64,000 nt of DNA from an uncultured Candidatus Peribacteria bacterium (GCA_964516995.1 CAZFAV010000004.1:18689-82688); one strand, 5' to 3'; positions 6,486 through 26,879 are shown, counted from the first letter of the stretch. Translations and numbers: made by a program. Notes: generated from the letters alone by a model not told the origin.

Positions 6486-8117
6486 ATGAAGACCTGTGAG
6501 CGCTGCCAAATGGGGTTTGAGATCGGTACATGTGACCGCACTTTTTTAGAGAAGTTTGATGTGCCTGACCCCAAGCTTTGTCCTGATTGTCGCAACCAAC
6601 GTCGGCTTATTTTCCGTAATGACCGGAATTTCTACAAACGCAGCTGTGATCTTTGCCAAAAAGTGATCGTAAGCATTTGCTCTCCTGATAAACCCTTCCC
6701 CGTCTACTGCAAGGAATGTTATTTAAGCGATCGCTTCGACCCGCTCGTTTATGGCGCTTCCTACGATCCTTCTCGCTCTTTTATTGAGCAATTTGCTGAG
6801 ATGCGAGCTCGTGTACCTCGAGTGGCCAATTATTTTACGCAGTGTGAAAATTGCGATTACACCGTGCACACTGGCAACAGTCGCAATTGTTATATGGGCG
6901 CTTCTTTTGTGAATTGTGAAAACACTTATTATTCGGACTGGGCTTTTTATTGCAAAGACTCTTCTGATCTCTACATTTGCCAAAATATGGAGCGCTGCTA
7001 CGAATGCATGCAATGCGAGCAATGCTATAGCGGCATGTGGCTAGAAAACTGTATGGGCGTGAGTTTCTCTGCCCTTTGTTTTGATTGCCGTAGCTCTCAA
7101 TACCTTCTGGGCTGTGTGGGACAACGTCAAAAACAACACATGATTTTAAATGAGCCAGTGAGCGCGCAGGAATTTGAAAGCACTTGGAATAGGCTGATGA
7201 CTGACTCGACTTTTCGTAAGGAATTTAAAGAGAAATATCGTGCCCTTCGCCTCAGGATTCCCGTGAAATCCACTTGGGATAAAAACAGCGAAAACTGCAC
7301 TGGAAATTACGTGACCAATTCTCGCAACGCACAGGAGTCCTATGCGGTGAAAGATGTGGAGGATGGCTCTCATTTATACGAAGTGGGTGGACTCAAAGAT
7401 GGCATGGATGTGACCCGTTGTGCTCGTGGTGAATTTGTTTACGATGTGACGGCGCTCATCGATCTCAAGTTTAGTAAATTCTGCAATTTGTGTTATCAGT
7501 CCAGTAACATGGAGTACTGCGACAACTGCCAAAGTTCGCACAATTGTTTCGGTTGCATGGGGCTGAAGGGACATCGCTACTGCATTTTAAATCAGCAGTA
7601 TTCGCCCGAAGAATACGCCAGCTTGGTGGAAAAAATTCGTGCAGACATGCGAGCGCGGGGTGAGTACGGAGAGTTCTTCCCCGCTTCACTTTCGGTCTAT
7701 GGCTACAACGAAACCAAGGCTTGTGATTTCTATCCTCTGAGTAAAGAACAGGCCCTCGCAGAAGGGTTGAAGTGGCGGGACCCAGATGAAAGGTCTTACA
7801 CCGAACAAAAAATGAACTTACCAGAGGACTCCACAGAAGCTGCAGAAGATTTGGTGAACGAAGTACTGGCCTGCGAACTATGCAGTAAGAATTATCGTCT
7901 GATTTCTCAGGAATTGGCGCTGTATAAAATACTCGGAGTGCCTCTGCCACGGCAGTGCTACAATTGTAGACACTTGGCTCGCATGGCTTTGGAAACGCCT
8001 CGTCATTTGTGGGATCGCCACTGTGGCTCTTGTGGAATGGATATTCAAAGCACCTATTCCAGTGAGCGACCGGAGAAGGTTTTTTGTGAGAAGTGTTACC
8101 TAACCTCTGTAGTATGA
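6486..8117 (+). CDS. Cys-rich double-zinc-ribbon/CxxC-ladder family protein, paralogue P1 (subtype A, all four ribbons intact)
   Basis: I chose the ATG at MKTCERCQ, analogous to the other paralogues. N-module CxxC-x24-CxxC-x18-CxxC-x17-CxxC. Family motifs RPE-x-V(F/Y)CE-x-CY at the C-terminus. No TM or signal peptide. Confidence 0.9.
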   Translation: MKTCERCQMGFEIGTCDRTFLEKFDVPDPKLCPDCRNQRRLIFRNDRNFYKRSCDLCQKVIVSICSPDKPFPVYCKECYLSDRFDPLVYGASYDPSRSFIEQFAEMRARVPRVANYFTQCENCDYTVHTGNSRNCYMGASFVNCENTYYSDWAFYCKDSSDLYICQNMERCYECMQCEQCYSGMWLENCMGVSFSALCFDCRSSQYLLGCVGQRQKQHMILNEPVSAQEFESTWNRLMTDSTFRKEFKEKYRALRLRIPVKSTWDKNSENCTGNYVTNSRNAQESYAVKDVEDGSHLYEVGGLKDGMDVTRCARGEFVYDVTALIDLKFSKFCNLCYQSSNMEYCDNCQSSHNCFGCMGLKGHRYCILNQQYSPEEYASLVEKIRADMRARGEYGEFFPASLSVYGYNETKACDFYPLSKEQALAEGLKWRDPDERSYTEQKMNLPEDSTEAAEDLVNEVLACELCSKNYRLISQELALYKILGVPLPRQCYNCRHLARMALETPRHLWDRHCGSCGMDIQSTYSSERPEKVFCEKCYLTSVV

Positions 8118-9733: not shown

Positions 9734-9758
9734 GTACGATTCATGTCTCACCCTTTAT

Positions 9759-10481
9759 CTAATTCTCGGCCCACATTTTTTCAAACACAGCCATGAACAT
9801 TTTGTAAAAGGCAGGATTGGTAATACAAATGCAGTTGGTTTCTGCGGTTGCATCAAAAAGCATGATTTTATTGTCGAACAGGATACAAGTGGTTTCAAAA
9901 TAAGGGTCTTTAGGAAGAAATCTTACCTCTCGGCAGCTGGTTTTATCTTTCTTTTTTAAGTCTAATGCTGCTGGTGTTTTTTGAGCTAATAGCCGCGCGT
10001 AAATTTTCTTTTTTATTCTCTCTTTAGTCCATTTCTCCTCCCTCTTTGGATCTATGCCTTTTAAGAAAACATCGTAGTTGATCCAAATATTGATTACTTC
10101 GGGCTCGGTTCGGAGTATGTCTTCGTACATTTCTCGGTATCCTTCTGTGCCCTTGTAATATTGAACCTCGATGACCTGAGGAACATTTTTAGTAGCTTCA
10201 GCGAATCTGTCGACTAAATTTTGTGCTGCTTCATATTTTTCTTTTTCTTGATGCAAAACTTTTTTTGGATCATCTATCACAAAATAAGTCACGCGGCCTT
10301 TTTTGTAGCTGTAGACCAAATTCCTTTCCTCCAAGTTTTTTAAGGCTGCATATACGGTGGGCCTTTTAATTCCACTCATTCGTGCAAGAACTGAGGGTTG
10401 AGCGGTCCCAAGGTTAAACAAGAGAAGATATATGGCTGCCTCTTTAGGAGAAAATCCGAGTTTATAGAGTTCTTCTCTCAC
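9759..10481 (-). CDS. TrmB-family transcriptional regulator (TrmB-1)
   Basis: N-terminal winged-helix signature LGFSPKEAAIYLLLFNLGTAQPSVLARMSGIKRPTVYAALKNLEERNLV, about 240 aa. Convergent with P2 and divergent from the next block. Confidence 0.8.
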   Translation of the reverse strand: MREELYKLGFSPKEAAIYLLLFNLGTAQPSVLARMSGIKRPTVYAALKNLEERNLVYSYKKGRVTYFVIDDPKKVLHQEKEKYEAAQNLVDRFAEATKNVPQVIEVQYYKGTEGYREMYEDILRTEPEVINIWINYDVFLKGIDPKREEKWTKERIKKKIYARLLAQKTPAALDLKKKDKTSCREVRFLPKDPYFETTCILFDNKIMLFDATAETNCICITNPAFYKMFMAVFEKMWAEN

Positions 10482-10501
10482 TTTTTTAATGTTTAGATTT
10501 C

Positions 10502-10529
10502 ATTATCCTTTTTCTATGCCATTTGCCAA
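10502..10529 (-). promoter_or_regulatory. Candidate sigma70-type promoter for TrmB-1
   Basis: On the minus strand, TTGGCA (10524-10529), a 16-nt spacer, then GATAAT (10502-10507), about 20 nt upstream of the ATG at 10481. Confidence 0.4.
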
Positions 10530-10561
10530 GACCCTGGCTGGTTCGACATGTTTTTGGCTTA

Positions 10562-10589
10562 TTGACTTTCGATCTCTTTATTTTAAAAT
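10562..10589 (+). promoter_or_regulatory. Candidate promoter for the 470-aa gene / P3-P5 block
   Basis: TTGACT (10562-10567), a 16-nt spacer, then TAAAAT (10584-10589). The ATG at 10607 is only about 11 nt from the predicted TSS. Confidence 0.45.
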
Positions 10590-10606
10590 AGAATCTTATA
10601 TTTGAC

Positions 10607-12019
10607 ATGGAAAGAGTGCCACAAAACGAAAGCGGGTGGGAAGCTTTAAAAGCGTTTTGGAAACGCACTTTAACAGAGCGGAGCCTCACTTTAGATATAG
10701 ATGAGGAAGGACTTTCCGTTCAGAAAAAGCAAAAAATTGGACCAAAAGGGTTGATCGAAGACTGTTATATCCCAGGAGGAGATGTCCATGCATTTTATGT
10801 GGGAAAGATTCCTTTAAGGGGACCATGGCTAGCACTTAAAGACATCTCTGGGTGGGAAGAACAGAATCCCACTTATTCAAAACCTTATCTACAAGCGGCC
10901 TTGTCTTATGCTCAGACTTTTCTTCAAGATGGTCCCGTACGATTTGTGATTGGAGTCGAGCTACAAACTTTTTGTAATGGCCGTGATTCTATGCAGGGAC
11001 ATTTGTCTGCTCAAGAGGAAAGGGCTTTTTTGCTTAGAGTGGCCCAAGAGCACCACGTGCCGTTGGAGGATGTTTTAATTTCTACTTTTAGAGAAGACCA
11101 TCCAGAACTGTTTTTGGCTTTAGATGCTGCTGCTGACCCTATTTCCGGTCGCGTTCAGCTAGATCAAGTTTTTCTGTCAGAAATGCCCATACTTTCTGCT
11201 TCGTCTAATGCCCTGGAGCTGGCTACTGTGCTTTATAAAGCGGCGCAAAAAAGTAGCAAGCTCAGAAAGGCTTTTCAAAGTTTGATTCCGGAGGAACTAA
11301 AAAAACAACGGGACGCGGATGAAAATACTTTCTGTTCGATGGATGCTTACGGACTTTTTGAAGTCGCCATACGCTTGGTGGATATTTTACGTGGCCGATA
11401 CATCCATGGTGGGGTGGATAGGCAAGGAGCTCTCGGCCAAGTAATTATTCAGCTGATTAGAGGGAGAGAAGGCATTTTTTCCTCTATTCTAGCCTTGGAT
11501 CCACTTTTCACTCTTCTCCAAGCTCAGTCTTTCCAAGCCCTTAATATTGATCGAAATAAGAATGAATTTGAAAGAGAGCGCATTGTTCATAGAGCTCGAT
11601 CTCGTATCCATGGCATCTATGGCCTAGGCGCAAGCATCGCGGTAGCAGTGGCTTCCAGTTATGGAATCTGGTCTTACCACCAAAAGGCCGAACAAGAGGG
11701 CTATTTTGACCAAGCTGTGCTTAGGGTGGGCTCTCATATTCAATGTCCTGAAATTCCTAATTTTGACTTAACAGAGCAGGCTAGATCAATAGAGTCACAA
11801 TTTGCATCTGACCTGAGTGATCGTTACAAAACATCCATCCCCTTTGGAGACTTGGAGCCCTTTTTGATGGAGGAGCTCTTTTCTCATCCAAAAGTCTGTT
11901 TGATTATGAATAGTGATCAAGACCGCCTAGATTTTCTTGATGATTTCGTACGCCATCACCCTTTTGTTTTTTGCTTTGAGGGAAATCCTAATCCAGCCGC
12001 TTGGTGTTTGTCTCAGTAA
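10607..12019 (+). CDS. Hypothetical protein (470 aa, one predicted TM helix near residue 345)
   Basis: Long ORF with coding-like composition and no recognisable motif. The hydrophobic stretch IYGLGASIAVAVASSYGIWSY is the only TM-like segment. It heads the second block of the array. Confidence 0.7.
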   Translation: MERVPQNESGWEALKAFWKRTLTERSLTLDIDEEGLSVQKKQKIGPKGLIEDCYIPGGDVHAFYVGKIPLRGPWLALKDISGWEEQNPTYSKPYLQAALSYAQTFLQDGPVRFVIGVELQTFCNGRDSMQGHLSAQEERAFLLRVAQEHHVPLEDVLISTFREDHPELFLALDAAADPISGRVQLDQVFLSEMPILSASSNALELATVLYKAAQKSSKLRKAFQSLIPEELKKQRDADENTFCSMDAYGLFEVAIRLVDILRGRYIHGGVDRQGALGQVIIQLIRGREGIFSSILALDPLFTLLQAQSFQALNIDRNKNEFERERIVHRARSRIHGIYGLGASIAVAVASSYGIWSYHQKAEQEGYFDQAVLRVGSHIQCPEIPNFDLTEQARSIESQFASDLSDRYKTSIPFGDLEPFLMEELFSHPKVCLIMNSDQDRLDFLDDFVRHHPFVFCFEGNPNPAAWCLSQ

Positions 12020-12034
12020 GTTCCAATAGAGAGC

Positions 12035-12063
12035 TTGTCCTGTCGACCTTTTTCCGATATAAA
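12035..12063 (+). promoter_or_regulatory. Candidate internal promoter upstream of P3
   Basis: TTGTCC (12035-12040), a 17-nt spacer, then TATAAA (12058-12063). The ATG lies at 12081. Confidence 0.4.
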
Positions 12064-12080
12064 TAAGCTCTTTGATTTTT

Positions 12081-13727
12081 ATGGAACAGACCTGCAAAAT
12101 CACGGGGAAAAAGTTTGAATTTACGGACTGGGAGCTTCAAGTTCTGAGGAAATTTAGTGTGGATTTCCCAGCTCCTACGCTGTGCATTGAAGAGCGGCAC
12201 CGTCGCCGTTTGGCGCATCGCAATGAACGTAAGATTTACAAAAGCAAATGTGCCCTTTCCGGCAAAGATATTGTTTCGGTCTACTCGCCGGATAAACCCT
12301 ATACTGTGCTGGCTCCGGAGGTGTGGTGGAGTGACCAATGGGATCCCAAGTCCTATGGGCGTGACTTTGATTTTTCTCGTCCTTTTTTTGAACAGTTTGC
12401 AGAGCTTGAGCGGGATGTGCCTCACCTCGCGCTCATCAATGTGAATGGAGAAAACAGCGACTATTGCAATCTCACCACCGGTAATAAAAACTGCTATTTG
12501 GTCTTTGGCGGGGACTACAACCAAGACTCCATGTACAGCGCCTTCAGCATGCATGGCATAGACAATGTGGACGTATACTGGGTCACGGGCTCGGAGCTCA
12601 TTTATGACTGCACCGATTGTGAGGGCTGCTACAACCTTAAGTATTCTCGCAACTGTGTCTCTTGCCGCGAAAGTGCCTTTCTTTTTGCCTGCCGCAACTG
12701 TGAGAATTGTTTTGGCTGTGTGGGGCTCATCGGAAAGAAATACCACATTTTCAATCAGCCCTACTCGCCCGAAGAGTACAAAAAGAAAATTGCGGAATAC
12801 GATTTGAGTTCTTGGAAGAGCGTACAGTATTTAAAAGAAGAATTTGAGAAATTTCGGCTTAAATTCCCTCACCGTTATGCGCAAATCATCAACTCGGAAA
12901 ACTGCACCGGGGACCATATTTCTAATGCTAAAAATTGCATCAATTGCTTTGGCATAGAAGGTCCAGCGGAGGATGCGAAGGATCTTTTTTTGAGTGCGGA
13001 GAACATCAAAGACTGTTTGAGTTCGAGTCATTTTGGATACAAGGTGGAACTTTATTACGAGATGCTCGGTTCCTTGGAAGGCCGCGACTGTGCTTTTTGT
13101 AGTTTTTCTTGGACCTCCCAATCCACCTTCTACTGCGAAATGGTCACAAACTCTCACGACCTTTTTGGCTGCAGCAATATGAAGCGCGCGGAGTACTGCA
13201 TTTTGAACAAGCAATACAGCAAGGAGGAGTATTTTGCTTTGCGAGATCGAATCATGGAGCACATGAAGAAAACCGGAGAGTGGGGTGAGTTTTTCCCGAT
13301 TCAAAACTCCTTGTTTGCCTACAATGAGACCGTGGCCCAGGACTACTTCCCTCTCACTAAAGAGGAGGCTCTGGCTAAGGGCTATCAATGGCTGGATGAA
13401 GAAAGGCGCTCTGGCATTGGTCCGATGATTCCTGATCGTATTTCTGACACAACAGATACTATTCTGGGTCAGGCTTTAGTCTGTGAAAAAACGGGCCGTC
13501 CTTACCGCGTGATTCCTCAGGAATTGGCCTTTTATAGAAAGATGGGAGTGCCCGTGCCTCACTATGCACCAGAAACTCGCAATGAGCTGCGGATTGCCCT
13601 TAGAAATCCCATTCAAACATGGGAGCGGAAATGTGTGAAGTGCAACAAACCGATTCAGAGTTCTTATGCTCCCCACCGTCCAGAAATCGTGTACTGTGAT
13701 GACTGTTATTTAGCCTTGATGTACTAA
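12081..13727 (+). CDS. Cys-rich family paralogue P3 (subtype C, N-terminal ribbons degenerate)
   Basis: ATG at MEQTCKITG (the ORF-track TTG at 12072 is less likely). The single-Cys 'CKITGKKF' and 'LCIEERHRRR' replace CxxC/CPxCR. The family core motifs and the C-terminal CVKCNKPIQSSYAPHRPEIVYCDDCY are intact. Confidence 0.9.
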   Translation: MEQTCKITGKKFEFTDWELQVLRKFSVDFPAPTLCIEERHRRRLAHRNERKIYKSKCALSGKDIVSVYSPDKPYTVLAPEVWWSDQWDPKSYGRDFDFSRPFFEQFAELERDVPHLALINVNGENSDYCNLTTGNKNCYLVFGGDYNQDSMYSAFSMHGIDNVDVYWVTGSELIYDCTDCEGCYNLKYSRNCVSCRESAFLFACRNCENCFGCVGLIGKKYHIFNQPYSPEEYKKKIAEYDLSSWKSVQYLKEEFEKFRLKFPHRYAQIINSENCTGDHISNAKNCINCFGIEGPAEDAKDLFLSAENIKDCLSSSHFGYKVELYYEMLGSLEGRDCAFCSFSWTSQSTFYCEMVTNSHDLFGCSNMKRAEYCILNKQYSKEEYFALRDRIMEHMKKTGEWGEFFPIQNSLFAYNETVAQDYFPLTKEEALAKGYQWLDEERRSGIGPMIPDRISDTTDTILGQALVCEKTGRPYRVIPQELAFYRKMGVPVPHYAPETRNELRIALRNPIQTWERKCVKCNKPIQSSYAPHRPEIVYCDDCYLALMY

Positions 13728-15317
13728 ATGATTAATCGTTGTAGAAACTGCCAAAATCCTTTTGAGGTCACAGATAAGGACATGGAGTTTTATAAAAAGA
13801 TAGAAGTGACGCCTCCTAGTTTTTGCCCTTCGTGTCGCTTGCAAAGACGTCTCAGTTTCCGGAATGAAAGTAAACTCCATAAGAGGAGTTGTGATTTGTG
13901 TAAGAGACCCGTCATTTCTTTTTATTCTGAGCAGAGCCGTTTCCCTGTTTATTGCATGGAGTGTTGGTGGTCCGACCAATGGGATCCTTCTAGTTATGGA
14001 CGGGATTTTGATTTTTCACGTCCTTTTTTTGATCAGATGAAAGAATTGATGCAAGTAGTCCCCAAAGCTTCTGCGCTTCACTTAAACAATGAAAATTCTG
14101 AATATAATGCCCTGCTCGCCTTCAGCAAAAACACTTATATGTCTGCTGGTTCTTATTACGTAGAGGATTGTTTGTATGCTCGCAAGAGTCAGTACAGTAA
14201 AGACTGTTTGATCAGTAATTTCTTGGACCATTGTGAACTGGTGGCATGGAGCACTAATTCAAAGAACTGTTATCGTGCTCACCATCTTTTAAACTGTAGA
14301 AGTTGCAACAATTCGGCCTACCTAGCCGACTGCACAAGCTGTGAAAATTGCTTTATGTGCAGTGGGCTTAGTAATAAAAAATTCTGCTTTAAAAACCAGC
14401 AGTTGAGTGAAGAAGATTATCAGAAAAAGGTGGAGGAGTATCAGGATAAAAACCCTAAAGATATTTGGAAAGAATTTTGTACATTCAGTGCCAGCATCCC
14501 TAAGCGTTACCAAAATCAGCTCAGTTGTGAAAATTCTTCTGGAGACTATATCTATAACTCTAGAAATGCTACGGAGGTTTATGATTGTTTTGAAGTTCAA
14601 GACTCCAAATATTTACTCGAATGCGTCAATGTGAAGGACAGCATGGATCTTTCTATGCACGATAAAGACATCGAGCTTTGTTATGAACTGTGTTCAGGGG
14701 GTGACAGTAATTTTAACCTTAAATTCAGTTATTGCTCTTGTGCCTCTCCTAATTCCAGCTATCTATTTTCATGTTTTTACTTGGAGGACAGTTTGGGTTG
14801 TGACGGTTTTCATGCGCGTCAAAAAAACTATATTCTGAATAAAAAATATGGTGAAAGTGAATACCAAGAACTCAAAAAGCGGATCATTGAACATATGAAG
14901 AGAACTGGCGAATGGGGCGAGTTTTTCCCTATCACGCTCTCTTCCTTTCCTTATAATGAGAGTGTGGCTTTTAATAGCTTCCCCCTTACCCGCGAAGCAG
15001 CTTTACAGAACGGTTACTCTTGGGCAGAAGAAGAGTCCCGATCCGTGGCGACTGCACTTGGTGTTTTACAATGTGAAGTCTGTTCCAAACCTTATCGAAT
15101 CATTCCACAGGAAGCAGCTCTGGGTCAAAAAATTGGTGTTCCTCCTTCTACATTATGTGCAGACTGCCGATTTGCAGAACTTTTCAGCTGGAAGAATCCC
15201 CACCAACTTTGGTCTGGACAGTGTGATCGATGCAGTATGTCTATTCAAACCACCTATTCCCCTTCTCGTCCGGAAAAAGTTTACTGTGAGAAGTGTTATT
15301 TGGAGTCGGTGTACTAG
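13728..15317 (+). CDS. Cys-rich family paralogue P4 (subtype A, all four ribbons intact)
   Basis: TAAATG junction with P3. The N and C modules both show CxxC-x24-CxxC-x18-CxxC-x17-CxxC. I hand-counted 37 Cys in 529 aa. Confidence 0.9.
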   Translation: MINRCRNCQNPFEVTDKDMEFYKKIEVTPPSFCPSCRLQRRLSFRNESKLHKRSCDLCKRPVISFYSEQSRFPVYCMECWWSDQWDPSSYGRDFDFSRPFFDQMKELMQVVPKASALHLNNENSEYNALLAFSKNTYMSAGSYYVEDCLYARKSQYSKDCLISNFLDHCELVAWSTNSKNCYRAHHLLNCRSCNNSAYLADCTSCENCFMCSGLSNKKFCFKNQQLSEEDYQKKVEEYQDKNPKDIWKEFCTFSASIPKRYQNQLSCENSSGDYIYNSRNATEVYDCFEVQDSKYLLECVNVKDSMDLSMHDKDIELCYELCSGGDSNFNLKFSYCSCASPNSSYLFSCFYLEDSLGCDGFHARQKNYILNKKYGESEYQELKKRIIEHMKRTGEWGEFFPITLSSFPYNESVAFNSFPLTREAALQNGYSWAEEESRSVATALGVLQCEVCSKPYRIIPQEAALGQKIGVPPSTLCADCRFAELFSWKNPHQLWSGQCDRCSMSIQTTYSPSRPEKVYCEKCYLESVY

Positions 15318-15347
15318 GCTGGTATAGTGCTGCAGTTCCCTATAAAT

Positions 15348-17018
15348 ATGCTGCAAAACTGTTCCCAATGTTTCCAAGTGTTCGACATCTCCCCCGAAGA
15401 CTTGGCTTTTTATGATTCCATCTCTCCAGTGATGGGAGGACAGAAGCAAGCTATTCCTCCTCCTCAGCGCTGTCCTTCTTGTCGCCTTCAAAAGCGTATG
15501 GCTTTTAGGAATGAACGAAAGCTTTACCATCGCAAAAGTGATCTTAGCGGAAAATTAATCCTCACTAACTATTCTCCTGAGAAAAATTATAAAGTTTACG
15601 ATCAAGATGAATGGTGGTCCGACCAGTGGGAGGGACTGAGTTTTGGTCGGGATTTTGATTTTAATCGAAGCTTTAGCGAGCAGTTTGACGAGCTCATGCA
15701 CGAGGTGCCGCACATCTCTCTCATCAATACCGGTTGCGAAAACAGTTACTTCACCAACTTCGCTCTTTTTCAAAAAAACTGTTACCTCATTTTTGGCGGA
15801 GGGAACAGTGAGGATTGTATGCATGGAAAGTACATTGTGAGCTGCAAAAACTGTGTAGATAATCTGACTTTGTACAACTCTGAACTTTGTTATGAAGGAG
15901 TGGCTTCGGACAATTGTTACCAGTGCCATTACTTTTCGCATTCACGAAACTGCGTGGACTGCCTCATGATCGACAACTGTCTAGCCTGCAAGAATTGTAT
16001 CGGCTGTTTTGGCCTGGTGAATAAAGAATATTTTTACTTCAATCAATTTGTAGGGAAGGAGAAGTTTATGGAACTTAAGGCGGCTTTATATCCTTTGACT
16101 CCTGCTAAGATTGCTGCGCTTCGGACTCAGTTTGAGGCCATGAAGGCTCAGCTTCCTCATCGACAAGCGCGTATTTATGCGTCAGAGAATTGTACCGGTG
16201 ACAATATTTATAACTCAAAAAATTGCCAGATTTCTTACGACATTAAAGAGTGTGAAGACTGTAAGTTCATGAATTTTGCACCCAAGTGTAAGGGCAGTTA
16301 CGACACTTCTTTCTGCGCGCCGGACGGGGTGCAATTTTCTTACAATATGTGCTCCGCCATCAGTACTCGTTCTATGACGGGCTATTTAGTGTGGTATTGC
16401 GACAGTGTTTATTACTCCGAGGAGTGCCACCATTCTAATGATTTATTTGGCTGTGTAGGTCTCAAAAATAAACGTTATTGTATTTTAAATAAGCAGTACT
16501 CTAAGGGAGAATATGAAGCTTTGATGCCACGTATTATCGAGCACATGCGTAAGACCGGAGAGTGGGGTGAGTACTTTGATTATAAGCTCTCTCCCTTCTG
16601 TTATAACGAGACCGTGGCCCAAGAATATTTCCCTTTGGATGAGGCGGGAGCGGCAGCAGTCGGCGCGCGCTGGTACCCAGTAGCTCCAGAAACATTGGAA
16701 GGAACTTTACTGAGTTCTGTGCCCGAAAATATTCAAGAAGTGGGTGATGAAATCTTAAGCCAGGTTCTGACTTGTGAAGTCACTAAAAGACCTTATAAAA
16801 TCATCCCTCCAGAGTTGAAGTTTTATCGCTCCCAAGGCTTGCCAATACCTCGTCGACATCCGGATCAAAGGCACATGGATCGGGTAGCGTTGCATACCCC
16901 CTATCACCTTTTTGATCGCGCTTGCTCCCAGTGTGGCAAAGACATGCAAACTGCCTACTCAACTCAAAAAGCACCCATCGTTTATTGTGAAGAGTGCTAC
17001 CTCAAACTCATTTACTGA
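15348..17018 (+). CDS. Cys-rich family paralogue P5 (subtype B)
   Basis: I chose the ATG at MLQNCSQCF (the ORF-track GTG at 15327 is possible). ISPVMGGQKQAIPPPQRCPSCRLQKR, YCILNKQYSKGEYEALMPRIIEHMRKTGEWGEYF, C-terminal IVYCEECYLKLIY. Confidence 0.88.
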   Translation: MLQNCSQCFQVFDISPEDLAFYDSISPVMGGQKQAIPPPQRCPSCRLQKRMAFRNERKLYHRKSDLSGKLILTNYSPEKNYKVYDQDEWWSDQWEGLSFGRDFDFNRSFSEQFDELMHEVPHISLINTGCENSYFTNFALFQKNCYLIFGGGNSEDCMHGKYIVSCKNCVDNLTLYNSELCYEGVASDNCYQCHYFSHSRNCVDCLMIDNCLACKNCIGCFGLVNKEYFYFNQFVGKEKFMELKAALYPLTPAKIAALRTQFEAMKAQLPHRQARIYASENCTGDNIYNSKNCQISYDIKECEDCKFMNFAPKCKGSYDTSFCAPDGVQFSYNMCSAISTRSMTGYLVWYCDSVYYSEECHHSNDLFGCVGLKNKRYCILNKQYSKGEYEALMPRIIEHMRKTGEWGEYFDYKLSPFCYNETVAQEYFPLDEAGAAAVGARWYPVAPETLEGTLLSSVPENIQEVGDEILSQVLTCEVTKRPYKIIPPELKFYRSQGLPIPRRHPDQRHMDRVALHTPYHLFDRACSQCGKDMQTAYSTQKAPIVYCEECYLKLIY

Positions 17019-17767
17019 GCCACAAAGGAAGTGGCACCGAGCCAAGCGAGATTGTACACCGCTCTTTGTGTGCGAGCGTACACTGCGGATTCAATGAGTA
17101 GGCCAATGGATTCCTCGGGATCGAGCGACATGACTGCAACCGTGTTCCCATAAATAGAAATTTGATTTTCAAAGTTGAACTCTTTGGGGTTTACAAAGAG
17201 AATTTCCACAAGTTCTTCTGGATAATTTTTGGGATAAAAGGTTTTCACAAAGCGACGCGCTTCTTCAGTGGAGGGGGAGAGTAGACGGGTTTTAATTCCT
17301 CGCTTCACGAGTTTCTGGGTGTAGCTGGGCAGATAGTCAGGGAGCAATTTGCCTAATGCAGCCAAGTTGGTGTAACCCAGCACTTCCGACTCCGCCTCTA
17401 GGGTTTGATCGAAGATGGTTTTGATCCCCTCGATTCCTTCGTAAGAACGAATAAGTGGTTTAAAAGATTGTGGACTGATGAGCGAAAGGAGTTGAGGCAA
17501 AAGCTTTTTGGCAGAAGCGTATTTTTCTTGAATTTGATTAACGAGAACTTGCGGAGGCTCGGCCACAAAAAACTTCACATTGCCTTTGAGATTGGACGTG
17601 ACGAGTCCGCGGCGCCGCAGATTTTCTAAGACATAATAACAGTTCACGCGTGGTACTTTGGATTTGCTGGCGATGGTGCTGGCAAAGGACCCTCCCAGCT
17701 CTAAGACGGTGAGGTAAACTTGTGCCTCTTCTTTGGATAAACCGAGTTCTTCGAGCTCAGGAAGCAT
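17012..17767 (-). CDS. TrmB-family transcriptional regulator (TrmB-2)
   Basis: LGLSKEEAQVYLTVLELGGSFASTIASKSKVPRVNCYYVLENLRRRGLV winged-helix signature, 251 aa. The 3' end overlaps the P5 stop by 7 nt (convergent). Confidence 0.8.
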   Translation of the reverse strand: MLPELEELGLSKEEAQVYLTVLELGGSFASTIASKSKVPRVNCYYVLENLRRRGLVTSNLKGNVKFFVAEPPQVLVNQIQEKYASAKKLLPQLLSLISPQSFKPLIRSYEGIEGIKTIFDQTLEAESEVLGYTNLAALGKLLPDYLPSYTQKLVKRGIKTRLLSPSTEEARRFVKTFYPKNYPEELVEILFVNPKEFNFENQISIYGNTVAVMSLDPEESIGLLIESAVYARTQRAVYNLAWLGATSFVAQ

Positions 17768-17793
17768 AGTGTTGTAAAGTTTTTTCTACAATA

Positions 17794-17822
17794 ATTTTAA
17801 TCTGTTATAAGTATAATTTCAA
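17794..17822 (-). promoter_or_regulatory. Candidate promoter for TrmB-2
   Basis: On the minus strand, TTGAAA (17817-17822), a 17-nt spacer, then TAAAAT (17794-17799). The ATG lies at 17767. Confidence 0.45.
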
Positions 17823-17831
17823 GCAAATCGT

Positions 17832-17860
17832 ATGACAATATTTACAAAATTTGCTATGAT
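17832..17860 (+). promoter_or_regulatory. Candidate promoter for the csaA-like/P6-P8 block
   Basis: ATGACA (17832-17837), a 17-nt spacer, then TATGAT (17855-17860). Its -35 lies 9 nt from the -35 of the divergent TrmB-2 promoter. Confidence 0.45.
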
Positions 17861-17919
17861 GGGTACTAGCATTTAGAAAACAGGGCCAAACCCCTGTCCG
17901 TTTATTTCATTTGTCTTCT

Positions 17920-18252
17920 ATGGCGACTATCGACGATTTCAATGCCTTAGACATCCGCGTGGGTAAAATCACAGCGGCAGAACCCTTCCCTGAGGCACGA
18001 AAACCTGCTTACAAACTCACCATAGACTTTGGTCCAGAAATTGGACTGAAGCACTCTTCAGCTCAAATCACTCAGCATTATGAACGTGAAGCTTTGGTGG
18101 GTCGTTTGGTGCTGGGCGTGGTGAACTTTCCTCCTCGGCAAATCGGGCCTTTTCAATCTGAAGTGCTAACTTTGGGTTTGCCCGATGAAAATGGAGACGT
18201 GGTCCTTATTCAGCCTGATAGAGATTTACCCTTAGGTGGTCGCCTTTTCTAA
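17920..18252 (+). CDS. csaA: CsaA/YgjH-like tRNA-binding domain protein
   Basis: DIRVGKITAAEPFPEARKPAYKLTIDFGPEIGLKHSSAQIT...LVGRLVLGVVNFPPRQIGPFQSEVLTLG matches the OB-fold tRNA-binding (EMAP/CsaA) domain pattern. I prefer the ATG at 17920 to the TTG at 17911. Confidence 0.75.
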   Translation: MATIDDFNALDIRVGKITAAEPFPEARKPAYKLTIDFGPEIGLKHSSAQITQHYEREALVGRLVLGVVNFPPRQIGPFQSEVLTLGLPDENGDVVLIQPDRDLPLGGRLF

Positions 18253-18253
18253 T

Positions 18254-19900
18254 ATGAATTCCCTGACTAAAACTTGTAGAGTGAGCGGCCAAGATTTTGT
18301 GGTGAGTCCTACGGATCAAGCCTTTTATGAGAAACTGGGAGTTCCTTTACCCACTTTGAGCCCGGAAGAAAGACGACGACGACGCTATGCTCATCGCAAT
18401 GAAAGGCACTTGTACCATCGCACTTGTGGACTCAGTGGCAAGACTTTGATTTCCAATATTTCTCCAGAAAGTGGGATCCCCGTGTATGAATCTGCGGAAT
18501 GGTGGAGCGACAAATGGGACGCCCTGCAGTATGGCCGTGACTTTGATTTCTCCCGTCCTTTTTTCGAGCAATTTAAGGAACTTAGTCGTGTAGTGCCTCA
18601 ATTGGCTCTCTCAGTTTGGAATTCTGAGAACAGTAGTTATTGCAACTATGTAGGGAACGTGAAAGACTCTTATTTGATCTTTGGTTCGGTTTACTCCGAG
18701 CAGTGTTATTTCGGCTCTCCCTACTATTCCCGAGACTGCATCGATACTTTAGTGGTGCGCGATTGTGAACACTGCTACGAATGCATTGACTGTCGCAAAC
18801 TTTACGAATGTTTTTACTGCCAAGATTGCCACACTTCTTCGCAGCTCATTGCCTGTTATGACTGCCAAAGTTGCCAAGACTGCATCGGCTGTGCGGGTCT
18901 GCGCAGAAAGCAGTATTGCATCTTTAACAAACAAGTGAGCAAGGAAGAATATGAAAAGTTTAAGTCAGAGCTGAATCTTTGCGACCCAGCTACTCGAACT
19001 CATTTAGAGCAAGAACTCGCTCGGTTAAAGTTAGAAATTCCCCACCGCTACATGCACAGCGGGCAGGTAGAAAATGTGAGCGGAGATTATGTTTATCAAA
19101 GCAAAAACGCAGAAGATTGCTTCTTTACTGACCGCTCAGAAGACGTGGCTCACTGTATGCAAGTGGTGGACTTAAAAGATTGCTTTGATAATAATTTTAC
19201 AGAAGAAAATGAGCTCTGCTACGAATATTTAGGAGCTTATCAAAATCAGCGAGTCTTGTTTTCTAAGTTTCTCAATAAGGTCTCTGAAAGTTTCTACTGT
19301 GACAGTTGTTTCAATTCCAAAAATCTTTTTGGCTGTATTGGAATGAGAGGAAAGTCTTACTGCATTCTGAACAAGCAATACAGTAAGGAAGAATATGAAG
19401 CCTTAGTTCCTCGTATCATCGAGCATATGAAGAAAACGGGCGAGTGGGGTGAGTTTTTCCCTATAGACAGCTCTCTGTTTGCCTACAACGAAACAGTGGC
19501 CAATGAGTATTTTCCTCTGACCGAGGAAGAAGCTAAGGCCCGTAGCTACGCTTGGAGAAAAGAAGATGAAAGTAGTACTTACCAAGGTCCACACGCTCAA
19601 ATTCCGGAAAATATTTCTGAGGTGCCGGACTCTATCATGGACCAGATACTCACCTGCGAAGTGAGTGGGAAACTGTATAAAATCATCCCCGCTGAGTTGG
19701 AGTTTTACCGACGAATGCATTTGCCCGTGCCTCGTCGCTGTCCCAACCAGCGGCATCAAGATCGCCTCCAAAAGCGTAATCCTCAAAAACTATGGCCATG
19801 GGAATGCTCCCAGTGCGGGACTGGTATTTCTACTGTCTACTCACCTGAGCGAGCGGAAAAGGTTTACTGTGAAGCATGTTATTTAAAATTGGTTTACTAA
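18254..19900 (+). CDS. Cys-rich family paralogue P6 (subtype C)
   Basis: The ATG lies 1 nt after the csaA-like stop. 'CRVSGQDF' and 'LSPEERRRRR' mark degenerate ribbons. There are 12 Cys in 43 residues at 18764-18892. C-terminal KVYCEACYLKLVY. Confidence 0.9.
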   Translation: MNSLTKTCRVSGQDFVVSPTDQAFYEKLGVPLPTLSPEERRRRRYAHRNERHLYHRTCGLSGKTLISNISPESGIPVYESAEWWSDKWDALQYGRDFDFSRPFFEQFKELSRVVPQLALSVWNSENSSYCNYVGNVKDSYLIFGSVYSEQCYFGSPYYSRDCIDTLVVRDCEHCYECIDCRKLYECFYCQDCHTSSQLIACYDCQSCQDCIGCAGLRRKQYCIFNKQVSKEEYEKFKSELNLCDPATRTHLEQELARLKLEIPHRYMHSGQVENVSGDYVYQSKNAEDCFFTDRSEDVAHCMQVVDLKDCFDNNFTEENELCYEYLGAYQNQRVLFSKFLNKVSESFYCDSCFNSKNLFGCIGMRGKSYCILNKQYSKEEYEALVPRIIEHMKKTGEWGEFFPIDSSLFAYNETVANEYFPLTEEEAKARSYAWRKEDESSTYQGPHAQIPENISEVPDSIMDQILTCEVSGKLYKIIPAELEFYRRMHLPVPRRCPNQRHQDRLQKRNPQKLWPWECSQCGTGISTVYSPERAEKVYCEACYLKLVY

Positions 19901-21555
19901 TGACGCCTATTACTCAAAAATGTCGGGTGACTGGCCAAGCCTTTGTCATTGATGATGGAGACCAAGCCATGCTGGCTAAGCTGGGGATGCCATTACCCAC
20001 GCTTTGTCCTCAAGAGCGTCAAAGACGTCGTATGAGTTTTAGAAACGATCACCAACTCTACCACCGTAAATGTGATGCCACGGGTAAAGAAATCATCTCC
20101 TTATACCACTCTGATAGTCCATTCACTATTTATAGCCAAGAGTTTTATAGGAGCGATAAGTGGGACCCTAAAACATATGGGCAAGATTTTGATTTTTCTA
20201 GACCTTTCTTTGAGCAGTTTGCTGAGTTGCAAAAAAAGGTGCCTCGCATTGCCATCAATGCTTTAGGCAATGAAAATTCAGATTTCACTAGTTATACCGG
20301 CTGGAATCGCAATTGTTACCTCATTGTCACTTCGGATCGAAATGAAGATTCATACTTTGGCTACTTTCTTTTTGACAGTAAGAACTGTGTGGATAGCTTG
20401 TATGTTTTCAACTCAGAACTCTGCTATGAATGCGTAGACTGTAAGAATTGCTACCACTGTTTCTTTGGCCTGAATCTGGAAAACTGTACGGACTGCTTGT
20501 TCTCTCGTGATCTTATTGGATGCAGTGAATGTTTTGGCTGTATTAATCTTCGAAATAAAAAGTACTGTTACTTTAACGAGCAGCTGACTAAAGAAGAGTA
20601 TGAAAAAAGAATCAATGCGTTAAATCTGGCCTCCTATGAATCACTAAAGGCTATTCGTGGGGAGGTAGAGGCATTCTTTTTAAGTCATCCACGACGCGCC
20701 CTGGACATTAAAGCCTCGGAAAATGTTTCTGGAGATCATATTAAATTCTCAAAAAATTGTTCTAATGCTTACGATGTAAGTAATTGTCAGGACTGCCGCT
20801 ATGTTTCTCACTTTATCAACTCTAAAGATTGTATGGATTGGGACTACTGTGGAGACAAAAGCGAAATGGGTTACGAAATTAGTGGCTGCGTTGATTTGAA
20901 GTTTTCTGCTTTTGCCACCAACTGTTGGGTGGGTAATAGCTACCTCTATTACTGTGATTTGATGAATAACTCGAAGTACTGCTTTGGGTGTATTGGACTG
21001 GATAAAGGCGAATACTGCATTTTGAATAAGCAGTACAGTAAGGAAGAATATGATGTGCTGGTAGGTCGTATCGTGGATCATATGAAGAAAACTGGTGAAT
21101 GGGGCGAATTCTTCCCTTCACCATTGAGTCCCTTTGGTTACAACGAGACGGTGGCGCAGGATTACCTTCCTTTGACCCAGGAACAGGCTCAAGAGAGAGG
21201 TTTACGTTGGCATAATAAGGCAGAAAAAGCCTCCTATCAGGGTCCGAAGCTGAGCTTGCCTGACTCTGTGAAGGAAACGGATGAAAAAATCTGTTCTCAA
21301 ATTCTCACTTGTGAAGTCAGTGATGAACATTACCGGGTCATTTCTCAAGAACTTCGCTTCCATAAAGAGCACCAACTGGCTTTGCCACGGCGTTCTCCAA
21401 ACCAAAGATTTTTGGATCGCGTTCGCTTGCGAAATCCTCGTCAACAATGGGCAAGAAGCTGTGGGCTCTGTGGCAAAACCATGATGAGCAGTTATAGCCC
21501 TGAGCGCCCTGAGATTGTCTACTGTGAAGAATGCTTTATTAAAACCGTTTACTGA
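19900..21555 (+). CDS. Cys-rich family paralogue P7 (subtype C)
   Basis: TAATG overlap with P6. 'CRVTGQAF' and 'LCPQERQRRR'. YCILNKQYSKEEYDVLVGRIVDHMKKTGEWGEFFP. C-terminal IVYCEECFIKTVY. Confidence 0.9.
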   Translation: MTPITQKCRVTGQAFVIDDGDQAMLAKLGMPLPTLCPQERQRRRMSFRNDHQLYHRKCDATGKEIISLYHSDSPFTIYSQEFYRSDKWDPKTYGQDFDFSRPFFEQFAELQKKVPRIAINALGNENSDFTSYTGWNRNCYLIVTSDRNEDSYFGYFLFDSKNCVDSLYVFNSELCYECVDCKNCYHCFFGLNLENCTDCLFSRDLIGCSECFGCINLRNKKYCYFNEQLTKEEYEKRINALNLASYESLKAIRGEVEAFFLSHPRRALDIKASENVSGDHIKFSKNCSNAYDVSNCQDCRYVSHFINSKDCMDWDYCGDKSEMGYEISGCVDLKFSAFATNCWVGNSYLYYCDLMNNSKYCFGCIGLDKGEYCILNKQYSKEEYDVLVGRIVDHMKKTGEWGEFFPSPLSPFGYNETVAQDYLPLTQEQAQERGLRWHNKAEKASYQGPKLSLPDSVKETDEKICSQILTCEVSDEHYRVISQELRFHKEHQLALPRRSPNQRFLDRVRLRNPRQQWARSCGLCGKTMMSSYSPERPEIVYCEECFIKTVY

Positions 21556-23243
21556 TGCAAAAAACTTGTAAAAATTGCCAAATTTCTTTTGAGATTTATC
21601 CTGAAGACCTTGCTTTTTATGAGCGCATCTCTCCTACTTTTGACGGCAAGAAATTTCCTATTCCTACTCCCACGCTCTGCCCAACCTGCCGATGGCAAAG
21701 GCGTACTGCTTTTAGAAATGAGCGGACGCTCTATCATGCCACTTGCGGGCTGAGTGGAAAGTCCATGATTTCCATGCATCGTCCCGACGTTCCTTTTCCT
21801 GTGTACTCCATTAACGAGTGGCGCTCCGATAAATGGAATCCTTTAGATTACGGTCGAGATTTTGATTTCTCTCGACCTTTCTTTGAACAATTTAAGGAGC
21901 TTTGTGATCGGGTTCCACACTTCAACTTATTTGTAGATCCAGACATGGATGTAAACTCCGAATACACGAACTGTGCCGATCATTCAAAAAACTGCTATCT
22001 CATTTCTCAGGCAGAAAATAATGAAGACTGTTACTACACTCGTGGCATCAACCAGTGTAAGGACTGCGTTGATGATTTGCGCATCCAACAGTCGGAACTC
22101 TGCTATGAATGTGTAGGGCTTTTTTCATGCTATCGCTGCCTTTACTGCCAAGACTGCGAAAACAGCGTGGACTGTGCTTTTTCATCTGATTTAAAAGGAT
22201 GTAAAAACTGTTTTGGCTGCCATGGTTTGGTTCAAAAACAGTATTACTTTTTTAATCAGCCACTCAGCAAGGAAGAGTGGGAGAAACGAGTTCAAGAACT
22301 GGAACTGACCCCGGTTCTCATTGAAGAACTTCAAGCGCAAAGTGAGACTGTACGACTCCAAACTCCGCATCGAGCCGTGCACCAGACTCAGTGCGAAAAC
22401 GTAACAGGAGACCATTTGGTGCAGTGTAAAAATTCTCACGATGTTTATGACTCTAAAGATTTAGAAGAATGCGCTTATTGTTACGAAATTTTGAATGGTG
22501 CCAAGTATGCTTACGATTACTCCATGTGGGGTGTAAATGCGGAATTGCTCTACGAGTGTAATGGCGTGGGAAACAATGCTTACAACGTTTTGTTCACCAA
22601 TCATGGGTGGCAGAATTTGACGAATGTTCTTTACAGCGAAAGCTGTTTCCCATCTGTTAAAGACTGCTTTGGCTGTTTTGGACTCCGTCGTGCTCAATAC
22701 TGTATTTTCAATAAGCAATACACTAAAGAAGAATATGAATCGATGGTGGCTCGCATTTTGGAACACATGCAAAAAACGGGGGAATGGGGTGAATTTTTCC
22801 CGATTGAAATGAGTCCTTTTGCGTATAACGAAACCGTAGCTCAACTGGTGCTCCCTCTAAGCAAAGAGCAAGTTTTAGCCAAGGGTTGGAAGTGGTATGA
22901 GCGTGAAGAAGCTAAAGCACAATATATTGGACCGGATGTAGAGATCCCTAGTAAAATTCGTGAAACAAGTGATGAAATCACCAAACAAATTTTACGCTGC
23001 AAAAAAACTGGAAAGCTTTATAAAGTGATCCCCCAAGAACTGAACTTCTACCGAAAAATGGGTGTCCCTGTGCCCCTTGTTTGTCCTGAGCAAAGGCTTT
23101 TGGATCGAGCGGCTCGGCGAAATCCTCGTGTTCTCTGGAATCGAGCTTGCAGCGCTTGTGGACAAAACACTCTCAGTAGCTATGCTCCGAATCGACCAGA
23201 AATCGTGTACTGCGAAGCCTGTTATTTAAAAACGGTTTACTAA
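21555..23243 (+). CDS. Cys-rich family paralogue P8 (subtype B)
   Basis: TGATG overlap with P7. MQKTCKNCQ...ISPTFDGKKFPIPTPTLCPTCRWQRR. YCIFNKQYTKEEYESMVARILEHMQKTGEWGEFFP. C-terminal IVYCEACYLKTVY. Confidence 0.9.
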   Translation: MQKTCKNCQISFEIYPEDLAFYERISPTFDGKKFPIPTPTLCPTCRWQRRTAFRNERTLYHATCGLSGKSMISMHRPDVPFPVYSINEWRSDKWNPLDYGRDFDFSRPFFEQFKELCDRVPHFNLFVDPDMDVNSEYTNCADHSKNCYLISQAENNEDCYYTRGINQCKDCVDDLRIQQSELCYECVGLFSCYRCLYCQDCENSVDCAFSSDLKGCKNCFGCHGLVQKQYYFFNQPLSKEEWEKRVQELELTPVLIEELQAQSETVRLQTPHRAVHQTQCENVTGDHLVQCKNSHDVYDSKDLEECAYCYEILNGAKYAYDYSMWGVNAELLYECNGVGNNAYNVLFTNHGWQNLTNVLYSESCFPSVKDCFGCFGLRRAQYCIFNKQYTKEEYESMVARILEHMQKTGEWGEFFPIEMSPFAYNETVAQLVLPLSKEQVLAKGWKWYEREEAKAQYIGPDVEIPSKIRETSDEITKQILRCKKTGKLYKVIPQELNFYRKMGVPVPLVCPEQRLLDRAARRNPRVLWNRACSACGQNTLSSYAPNRPEIVYCEACYLKTVY

Positions 23244-23255
23244 AGCTTTGCAGGT

Positions 23256-23284
23256 TGTATCAGGTTCAATAATCTGGTATAATA
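23256..23284 (+). promoter_or_regulatory. Candidate promoter for the TraD/VirD4-like ATPase gene
   Basis: TTGTAT (23256-23261), a 17-nt spacer ending in TGG, then TATAAT (23279-23284). The ATG at 23300 implies a leader of only about 9 nt. Confidence 0.5.
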
Positions 23285-23299
23285 GGTTATTGGATATTT

Positions 23300-25558: not shown

Positions 25559-25720
25559 TACTATTTTTGACCTATCTCAACTCGCTCAACGGAACCGTCC
25601 CCGTCCCATGATTGGCAGGACTAGTTTTAGCATGTGAATTTTTAAAAGTCCTGACAAAAACCTGACTTAAATACTTCTAATGCAACTTTATTGCGTTAGG
25701 TCAGACTTAGGATTTGATCT

Positions 25721-26845: not shown

Positions 26846-26879
26846 GAGGTTTGAACGATTAAAGCGGGACTATGGTAAC

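Follow-up and report, generated by a model that had tools for sequence, protein, structure and literature searches.

Paralogue subtypes in a finger-and-repeat protein family of Patescibacteria as probable grades of recurrent, directional finger decay

Ligand states, phylogeny and array order

We examined a 64,000-nucleotide stretch of DNA from an uncultured Candidatus Peribacteria bacterium (GCA_964516995.1 CAZFAV010000004.1:18689-82688; the whole stretch is called the window), in which positions 6486-23243 hold eight plus-strand open reading frames (ORFs), P1 to P8, an array of eight copies and 13 kb. The encoded proteins, 529-562 amino acids (aa) long, are homologous end to end, with 60 invariant columns and 33-38% identity of the other paralogues to P1, and carry four candidate finger sites (N1, N2, C1 and C2) that, judging by their sequence, would bind zinc. 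An initial annotation, made from the sequence alone, had sorted the proteins into subtypes A, B and C by progressive loss of cysteine ligands and had suggested duplication of a multi-gene unit as their source. The graded loss is real. The subtypes, however, are probably grades of a recurrent, directional and independent finger decay in a family of the ultra-small Patescibacteria, not old lineages kept in a fixed order.

Sixteen putative ligand columns in the four sites were read with P4 as reference, and each copy received a class code of intact (1) or defective (0) at N1, N2, C1 and C2, in that order. P1 (6486-8117) and P4 (13728-15317) retain the four-ligand CxxC...CxxC set at all sites (both CCCC.CCCC.CCCC.CCCC; class 1111, subtype A). 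The B copies, of class 1001, keep it at N1 and C2, as seen in P2 (8114-9733; CCCC.CTAV.CSHL.CCCC), P5 (15348-17018; CCCC.SSDE.CTHQ.CCCC) and P8 (21555-23243; CCCC.CSSE.CTCQ.CCCC). They also share the motif (T/S/Y)PED(A/L)AF(L/Y)..I(A/S)P and a first loop, in N1, that is nine residues longer. Subtype C, class 0001, retains the set at C2 only and comprises P3 (12081-13727; CTCE.CSAV.CTAT.CCCC), P6 (18254-19900; CSSE.CSEE.CSCQ.CCCC) and P7 (19900-21555; CTCE.CTSF.CSSQ.CCCC). These spans begin at the likeliest starts (6486, 8114, 12081, 13728, 15348, 18254, 19900 and 21555 for P1 to P8), that of P5 being as in the 556-aa gene call of locus L082. The cysteine patterns and the order A-B, C-A-B, C-C-B had thus been described correctly throughout, every quoted string being present, and the three blocks are real, each separated by interposed genes.

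The phylogeny does not follow the subtypes. We collected 284 homologous ORFs from 78 loci with family copies in Patescibacteria metagenome-assembled genomes (MAGs), of which 247 were full length, aligned them to a family hidden Markov model (HMM) and, after removing the ligand columns, built neighbour-joining (NJ) trees with 100 bootstraps. Neither B nor C is monophyletic in the NJ tree, and the grouping of the two A copies has a bootstrap of 23%, so the expected A, B and C clades are not recovered. Distances (d) between window paralogues range from 0.87 to 1.45; the A-A pair P1-P4, at 1.37, is the second largest after P1-P5 (1.45), and the smallest, 0.87, joins P6 to P8, a C copy to a B copy. 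Nearer relatives lie in the genomes of other Peribacteria, where every paralogue except P7, seven in all, has orthologues at d 0.33-0.8. This pattern speaks against duplication of a multi-gene unit. The orthogroups tested, those of P1, P2, P3, P4, P6 and P8, have bootstraps of 95-100 and contain mixed ligand states.

The states within single orthogroups locate the losses. P1 falls in a clade (bootstrap 100) in which L001:9992 and L002:10001 are 1111 and the members from L003-L008 are 1101. The P2 orthologues L027:3212, L047:1922 and L079:11557 are all 1001, and P8 groups with L036:4572 and L060:2687 (bootstrap 100). P3 belongs with L027:4753, L002:13206 and L001:11620 (N1 = C-C-C-H) at a bootstrap of 100, and its closest relative, L079:13176, is also 0001; to judge from these sequences, P3 lost N1 within its own orthogroup. 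In the P6 orthogroup, members with at least 68% identity are 0001 and lack the nine-residue loop, except P0285, which like P0284 is 0001 with the loop retained; those at 58-67% are 1001 with the loop, hence B-like, and at 57% or below 1111 members appear. P6 would accordingly derive from a B-like ancestor. P7 has its nearest relative among the loci at d 0.90, and a protein search gave orthologues at 51-81% identity; its orthogroup (bootstrap 98 in a core-only tree) stays 0001 down to 51% identity, with the loop kept in distant members, which marks it as an apparently separate and older N1-less orthogroup. Over the core, P6 shares an identity of 0.65 with its 1001 orthologues against 0.41 with the P7 orthogroup. 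Together with the orthogroup states, these core identities indicate that N1 was lost three separate times, in P3, P6 and P7, on the core phylogeny. Across the family, both states occur within well-supported clades at least seven times for N1, at least four times for N2 and at least twelve times for C1. The loop likewise varies within at least nine well-supported clades and is also found in 1111 copies.

Nor is the order of subtypes maintained in related genomes. Relatives have the locus in synteny, with an NTP-transferase/hexapeptide gene on one side and a VirD4-like gene on the other, but its content differs. With the suffix o for an orthologue of the named window paralogue, the arrays read P4o-P2o-P3o, TrmB, 0101-P6o-1011 in L079; 1101-P2o-P3o, TrmB, 0101-P6o-1011 in L027; P4o-P1o-P3o, TrmB and tRNA_bind, P6o-0000 in L001; P4o-P1o-1111-P3o, TrmB, 0001-0011 in L002; and P8o-P5o, P6o and one more 1001 copy in L036. 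Copy number changes from 5 (L001) through 6 (L079 and L027) to 8 in the window and 9 in L082. Only L082, from a sister strain with 98.9% nucleotide identity over 12235-25558, keeps the window order, over the covered part from P3 to P8, and it has an added ninth copy. The observation that a B copy closes each block holds in the window (P=1/56 for random placement of two A, three B and three C copies, calculated post hoc) and fails in the related genomes. The A-B, C-A-B, C-C-B order would then be a lineage-specific product of rearrangement and of gene gain and loss, and a neat subtype order in one window can be a lineage-specific accident.

The model of the initial annotation, in which three monophyletic subtypes arose by unit duplication and form a hetero-oligomer to which each unit contributes a single fully liganded subunit for catalysis or sensing, is therefore very unlikely. 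That annotation had named a lack of monophyly, or random order and ligand loss in related genomes, as grounds for its own refutation; non-monophyly was observed, as were variable order and ligand states in relatives. It draws on the window order with its closing B copies, on the homologous nine-residue loop that these share, on the placement of P5 and P8 in one small NJ clade (bootstrap 2), and on a translational coupling that is compatible with a complex. Against it stand the large P1-P4 and small P6-P8 distances, the polyphyly of C by origin of loss, the lability of the loop and its presence in 1111 copies, and the differing order and composition of the five arrays from L079, L027, L001, L002 and L036. 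A fully liganded copy per unit is also not the rule, since block 3 has no A copy and the arrays L060, L017, L028, L022 and L036 show no 1111 member in about 21 kb.

Direction of decay and retained constraint

Finger loss follows a set order. Among the 247 full-length copies, the classes 1001 (88), 1111 (56), 1011 (49), 1101 (23) and 0001 (19) were counted, and C2 was defective in only six, at least two of which are alignment gaps or truncations. N2 and C1 are thus lost first, giving the commonest state 1001, then N1, and C2 almost never. Because N1 is homologous to C1 and N2 to C2, the 1001 class keeps exactly one finger of each kind. Loss of N2 and loss of C1 are associated, with an odds ratio of 5 that is uncorrected for phylogeny. 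In the P6 and P7 orthogroups the nine-residue N1 loop was deleted after N1 had been lost.

The replacements are also patterned. The first ligand stays Cys in most defective sites (77/79, 291/363 and 332/349), the second becomes Ser or Thr with Gly as the next residue, the third is still Cys or has changed to His, Ser or Ala (in N2, to Asp or Glu), and the fourth turns into Glu or Gln. Separate decays in the P3, P6 and P7 lineages converge on C-x2-[S/T]-G ... [C/H]-x2-[E/Q].

The defective modules remain constrained. Entropy of the non-ligand columns is lower in degenerate than in intact modules at N1 (1.68 vs 1.95), N2 (1.85 vs 2.08) and C1 (1.65 vs 2.16). The ratio of nonsynonymous to synonymous substitution (dN/dS) had been proposed as a check for each subtype; against L082 it could be obtained for a C copy (P6, 0.076) and a B copy (P8, 0.082), and gave no estimate for the A copy P4 or for P5 and P7, which are 99.9% identical. 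These values come from the sister strain only, because farther orthologues (about 71-73% aa identity at best) were judged too diverged for dS; the VirD4-like ATPase gene that follows the array gives 0.115 in the same comparison. AlphaFold2 (AF2) predicts the degenerate modules of P6 with a predicted local distance difference test score (pLDDT) of 88-95 and the same secondary structure as in P4, a support that is weak because the alignment includes zinc-type homologues. Given the conserved modules and a dN/dS of about 0.08, indicative of purifying selection, the degenerate fingers have probably retained their fold, and the modules would keep fold and job without a Cys4 site.

These data bear directly on the idea that B and C copies are functionally relaxed duplicates on the way to pseudogenes, to which we give hardly any credence. 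Progressive ligand loss would suit it, as would a fully degenerate (0000) extra copy that one strain has and the other lacks; but all eight ORFs are intact with their 60 invariant columns, degenerate modules are not less conserved, dN/dS is 0.076-0.082 and 0001 orthogroups persist to 51% identity. The loss is also specific to the fingers, since the core holds 23-27 Cys in all classes, a number unchanged or higher in the degenerate ones. A global loss of cysteine, for example through sulphur or redox adaptation, was ruled out on the same count.

Zinc-ribbon proteins with Cys-less paralogues are familiar from the C+/C- ribosomal proteins L31, L33, L36, S14 and S18, typically switched by Zur under zinc limitation. 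Examples have been described (PMC5912738, PMC9825181), and the likeness to the present family is that a Cys4 site is recurrently lost with module fold and function kept, as would probably hold here too. Ribosomal C+ and C- forms are alternatives, whereas here intact and degenerate copies share operons with no zinc regulator nearby; moreover, each protein has four sites, the losses have a set order, and C2 is almost never lost. That degenerate copies serve as zinc-independent substitutes under zinc economy is very improbable. The coexistence of paralogues with and without Cys4 sites, and the ribosomal precedent, speak for it. The intact and degenerate copies, however, are translationally coupled in the same operons, the local regulators are TrmB-like and not Zur/Fur, each degenerate copy keeps C2 and 23-27 core Cys, and the orthogroups are old lineages with 33-48% identity rather than interchangeable pairs.

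Recurrent decay makes the family a natural replicated experiment, in which one set of Cys4 sites disappeared many times over, the order of loss and the replacing residues staying constant, from modules that remained under constraint. How a zinc finger becomes metal-independent can therefore be tested directly.

Protein architecture and range of the family

From the N to the C terminus, each protein consists of a finger pair (N1-N2), two homologous Cys-rich domains of 12-residue repeats, and a second, homologous finger pair (C1-C2). N1 is a long module, CxxC-x24/33-CxxC and treble-clef-like, after which comes a basic helix; N2 is a short CxxC-x17-CxxC ribbon. By hhalign, the N pair matches the C pair (E 4e-32), N1 matches C1 (1e-24) and N2 matches C2 (8e-14), and the first repeat domain matches the second with a probability of 99.9% and E 5e-35. 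Both repeat domains end in a conserved FGCxGL..K.YCI.N.QYSKEEY cap and a helix. Net charge is positive in the finger modules (+1 to +10), whereas the core is acidic; Cys makes up 5-8% overall.

All four sites had initially been called ribbons. The CxxC...CxxC sites are indeed present, but N1 and C1 are better described as treble-clef-like than as classical ribbons, given a knuckle-plus-helix layout, in which the helix begins at the second CxxC, and weak matches to zf_Tbcl models. The families zf_Tbcl (PF13451), zf_Tbcl_2 (PF23477) and TIGR04272 are "probable treble clef" CxxC-x17-CxxC zinc-binding domains of unknown function, and our terminal modules have the same CxxC...CxxC spacing. The best scores were 16.6 bits for P2 N1 to PF13451, 14.8-21.3 for C2 of P3-P8 to PF23477 and 12.9-19.2 for C2 of P4-P8 to TIGR04272; no window paralogue reached the curated cut-offs of 24, 27 and 36 bits (best 16.6, 21.3 and 19.2). 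Precomputed PF13451 or PF23477 matches do exist for some orthologues. The finger modules are thus probably distant relatives of zf_Tbcl-type domains, with the difference that those families consist of a single small domain, whereas here four modules frame a repeat core of about 340 residues that has no model. Because zf_Tbcl-type domains lack an established function, the resemblance adds no mechanism.

The central domains show a strict period-3 autocorrelation with a 12-residue super-period, and their Cys-rich core columns all lie in one register. Runs such as CxxCxxCxxCxxC occupy family alignment columns 135-210 and 286-368 (for example 18750-18900 in P6), although individual core Cys positions are freely swapped for S, L, V or G among paralogues; the core cysteines may line up as a buried ladder or provide additional metal sites. 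AF2 models of P4 (me0debfcdc68d; pLDDT 86.6, predicted template modelling score (pTM) 0.86) and P6 (m8cd4633679d1; pLDDT 84.0, pTM 0.87) show short strands 2-3 residues apart and helices after each repeat domain. We provisionally regard the core as a Cys-rich 12-residue-repeat solenoid.

Its likeness to Cys-rich and hexapeptide beta-solenoids lies in short-period repeats, three within twelve, and in this spacing of short predicted strands. The Tenebrio antifreeze protein, for instance, is a Cys-rich beta-helix of 12-residue repeats; antifreeze proteins have a signal peptide, and none was read from our sequences. The only structural matches were left-handed beta-helix proteins, namely GlmU, LpxA, LpxD and gamma-carbonic anhydrase, all non-significant (Foldseek E 0.016-0.2, TM about 0.1); the P6 model had none. 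Tested as a left-handed beta-helix, the core gave no Hexapep (PF00132) match in Pfam at E<=0.1, with a best Foldseek E of 0.016 and TM of 0.09-0.11, and acyltransferase motifs were not identified. For the present, the period-3/12 repeats fit some solenoid, though not demonstrably a left-handed beta-helix.

The family is large, unnamed and restricted to Patescibacteria. Two homologue searches returned 5297 and more than 7500 matches, all annotated "hypothetical" or "zinc-ribbon domain containing", from Peregrinibacteria, Peribacteria, Gracilibacteria, Abawacabacteria, Paceibacterota and other Patescibacteria. When 1.84 billion representatives were searched with a profile, 2424 clusters (50% identity) came out at E<=1e-30, nearly all of 530-600 aa. 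As a rule the genes stand in tandem, in arrays of 5-10 old and divergent paralogues; up to ten copies were counted in 21 kb, and one MAG has at least 17. That MAG is CAYWJA01 (contigs L004 and L038); CAYSVN01 (L008 and L060) has at least 12 copies, and the share reaches about 3% of a 1-Mb genome. Patescibacteria genomes are about 1 Mb in size, yet some spend this much on one unnamed family.

Existing models capture little of these proteins. Scans of the paralogues with Pfam, NCBIfam, PADLOC and PHROGs found no model for the core, only sub-threshold finger matches, and a profile search of PDB sequences gave LIM-domain noise on C2 only (E 0.006). The central repeats of P2, P3, P5 and P6 (for example P6 residues 167-221) weakly match phrog_15341, of unknown function (best E 7e-8), so related Cys-rich repeats may occur in phages; tblastn against phage and plasmid collections, with P8 as the phage query, returned no match. 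PADLOC defence models did not match six paralogues or the 470-aa ORF of the array, and only the ATPase gave generic P-loop matches (mad8 at 1.4e-9, HerA).

No description of the family was found in the literature searched. Cys-rich proteins of Peribacter riflensis have been described, of 580-3860 aa and mostly signal-peptide-bearing (PMC4736985), and we ruled out identity with them on both size and signal peptides. The family, its architecture, scale and genomic context thus appear to be undescribed, whereas the loss of zinc ligands from paralogues is nothing new. The family, whose architecture is clear and open to testing and whose genomic context (TrmB-like regulator, array, orphan VirD4-like ATPase) is conserved, forms a sizeable piece of the "dark matter" of the Candidate Phyla Radiation (CPR).

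Predicted operons, neighbouring genes and the orphan ATPase

Within the blocks the genes lie close enough to suggest coupled translation. P2 starts in the P1 stop (ATGA), the P4 start follows the P3 stop directly (TAA|ATG), P6 and P7 overlap by TAATG and P7 and P8 by TGATG; the ATGA, TAATG and TGATG overlaps make co-expression, a prerequisite for a hetero-oligomer, plausible. Blocks 1 (P1-P2) and 2 (P3-P4-P5) are parted by a minus-strand TrmB-like gene (9759-10481; PF01978, E 3.8e-13), divergent from the second block, and by a plus-strand 470-aa ORF (10607-12019), the first gene of that block, to which no family is assigned. Between blocks 2 and 3 (P6-P7-P8) lie a second TrmB-like gene, also on the minus strand and divergent from the block it precedes (17012-17767; PF01978, E 3.7e-16), and a plus-strand tRNA_bind gene. 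Promoter-like sites stand back to back in the first regulator gap (10502-10529 on the minus and 10562-10589 on the plus strand) and in both directions in the second (17794-17860). The second regulator has orthologues 72-82% identical in the same place in L027, L047, L001 and L002.

The tRNA_bind gene (17920-18252; CsaA/Trbp111-like, 110 aa; PF01588, E 6e-15) is coupled to P6 through a TAA-n-ATG junction. Its homologues adjoin P6-orthogroup genes, before or after, in L001, L044 and L019; L047 also has a tRNA_bind gene, beside a family copy that is not a clear P6 orthologue. This coupling may hint at a connection to RNA.

Downstream of the array and in the same orientation lies a VirD4/TrwB-like P-loop ATPase gene (23300-25558, plus strand; PF02534, PF10412 and PF12696). 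Its orthologues have a DUF8128 N-terminus, and no hydrophobic stretch was seen by eye in the N-terminal region. VirD4-like ATPases were found in 23 of the 78 loci, with 28 of 29 co-oriented with a family gene and 17 of 29 adjacent to one. TrmB-like genes occur in 36 of the 78 loci; 29 of 48 stand directly beside a family gene and are transcribed divergently from it. In a survey of 2,918 Patescibacteria genomes, 5,713 VirD4 homologues were reported, only 148 of them near virB4; the finger/repeat family is unmentioned and the word "zinc" absent in its main text (PMC12102498). Like those orphan homologues, the ATPase here matches T4SS-DNA_transf, TrwB_AAD_bind and TraG-D_C; genes of type IV secretion systems, including virB4, were looked for among the scanned neighbours only. 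Linkage to the arrays (23/78 loci, 28/29 co-oriented) is a new context for orphan VirD4-like ATPases.

On these grounds we propose that the proteins would be cytoplasmic, with basic finger modules flanking an acidic, solenoid-like core and binding nucleic acid or a partner. Local TrmB-like regulators would control the translationally coupled operons, from which the copies would be expressed together, and the proteins could act as non-redundant partners or adaptors, possibly in combination with the co-oriented orphan VirD4-like ATPase.

A further possibility, which the evidence makes conceivable but not the favoured one, is that the paralogues, with no unit duplication behind them, work as a hetero-oligomer or as a set whose members must function together; partners would supply the lost fingers, and assembly would proceed via the repeat domains. 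Multi-copy arrays are the rule, the genes are translationally coupled, the paralogues are old, separately conserved orthogroups under purifying selection, and the 1001 class keeps one finger of each kind. Yet copy number and membership change among close relatives (5, 6, 6, 8 and 9), which would be unusual for a fixed stoichiometry, and the structures are single-chain models only.

A bolder extension is a long shot: that several subunits from this family make up a partner, one that handles nucleic acid, of the orphan VirD4-like ATPases widespread in Patescibacteria, within a CPR-specific machine, with solenoid assembly and a repeated C/[ST]/[CH]/[EQ] replacement of the zinc sites in a fixed order. 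If true, the machine might, for example, take up, transfer or process DNA or RNA during episymbiosis. The divergent paralogues would then assemble through a previously unseen Cys-laddered 12-residue solenoid, and the C/[ST]/[CH]/[EQ] arrangement would be either metal-free or a new labile three-ligand metal site.

Several points weigh against recurrent, independent decay and the scheme built on it. Deep nodes of the NJ trees have bootstraps of about 0-30, and P2, P5 and P8 may share one old B-like ancestor. Within N1, the 0001 members of the P6 orthogroup are slightly more similar to the P7 orthogroup (identity 0.56) than to their own 1001 orthologues (0.49), so that some "independent" losses could be short conversion tracts. 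For the structures, AF2 confidence falls to 57-72 at places in the repeat domains, Foldseek searches with the two models against PDB and BFVD returned nothing at E<=0.001, and the term "beta-solenoid" leans on periodicity, strand pattern and weak left-handed beta-helix matches. The counts of TrmB-like and VirD4-like neighbours come from windows of +/-10 kb around copies rather than from whole genomes. Finally, zinc binding, fold retention, cellular location, nucleic-acid binding, co-expression and the link to the ATPase are steps that we infer.

The N1 similarity raises the alternative that degenerate fingers passed from one tandem neighbour to another, through gene conversion or exchange of modules, instead of arising by independent substitution in situ. 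P6 and P7 are adjacent, the core of the P6 orthogroup shows the opposite affinity (0.41 vs 0.65), and the core tree shows homoplasy in both loop and ligand states, all of which speaks for conversion. The N1 difference, however, amounts to about three residues in 46 columns, and the C-terminal part of P6 N1 keeps the P6-type RRF.HRNERHLYH, not the P7-type RRMAFRND. In P3 the degenerate N1 retains the WEQ..LKKF signature of its orthogroup, which indicates loss in situ, and no tract above 85% nucleotide identity joins any two window paralogues. Spread by conversion is therefore unlikely, though a short N1 tract of P6 may have come from a neighbour in this way, and we favour recurrent decay within separate orthogroups. 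Recent concerted evolution among the window copies was ruled out, as they share no tract above 83-85% nucleotide identity save very short motifs.

Some neighbouring features were recorded in passing. The 470-aa ORF has no match in Pfam or PADLOC scans, and its product has one homologue among the 78 loci (L004, 29% identity). Together with TrmB-like gene 1 it spans 9759-12019 and parts P2 from P3, whose orthologues adjoin in L079 and L027; the pair looks inserted into the array. The 64-kb window contains no tRNA gene according to ARAGORN, and no match to an Rfam family at gathering score. Elsewhere, a MazF/PemK toxin gene (L065:13352-13903) and an ORF6N/Rha-like gene of phage antirepressor type (L038:7282-7938) lie near arrays. 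The third commonest cluster of neighbours, present in 18 loci with a median length of 170 aa and without a Pfam match, was set aside, as it looks like spurious antisense ORFs.

Comparison with the sister strain suggested recombination within and near the array. L082 has 2.3 kb (L082:13319-15655), absent from the window at 25558-25721, between the VirD4-like gene and a PurP-like gene; it contains a 152-aa gene and, on the minus strand, the ninth family member (544 aa, HMM E 2.5e-110), all four finger sites of which look degenerate by eye. The adjoining PurP-like gene (25721-26849; DUF1246/DUF1297) is only 84.8% identical to that of L082 in nucleotides (dS 1.13, dN/dS 0.024) between flanks of about 99%, and this allele looks to have been replaced by recombination beside the indel. 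Positions 12235-23243 are likewise a mosaic relative to L082, with nucleotide identities of 99.9% for P4, P5 and P7, 98.5% for P8 and 97.0% for P6, which suggests gene-scale recombination inside the array.

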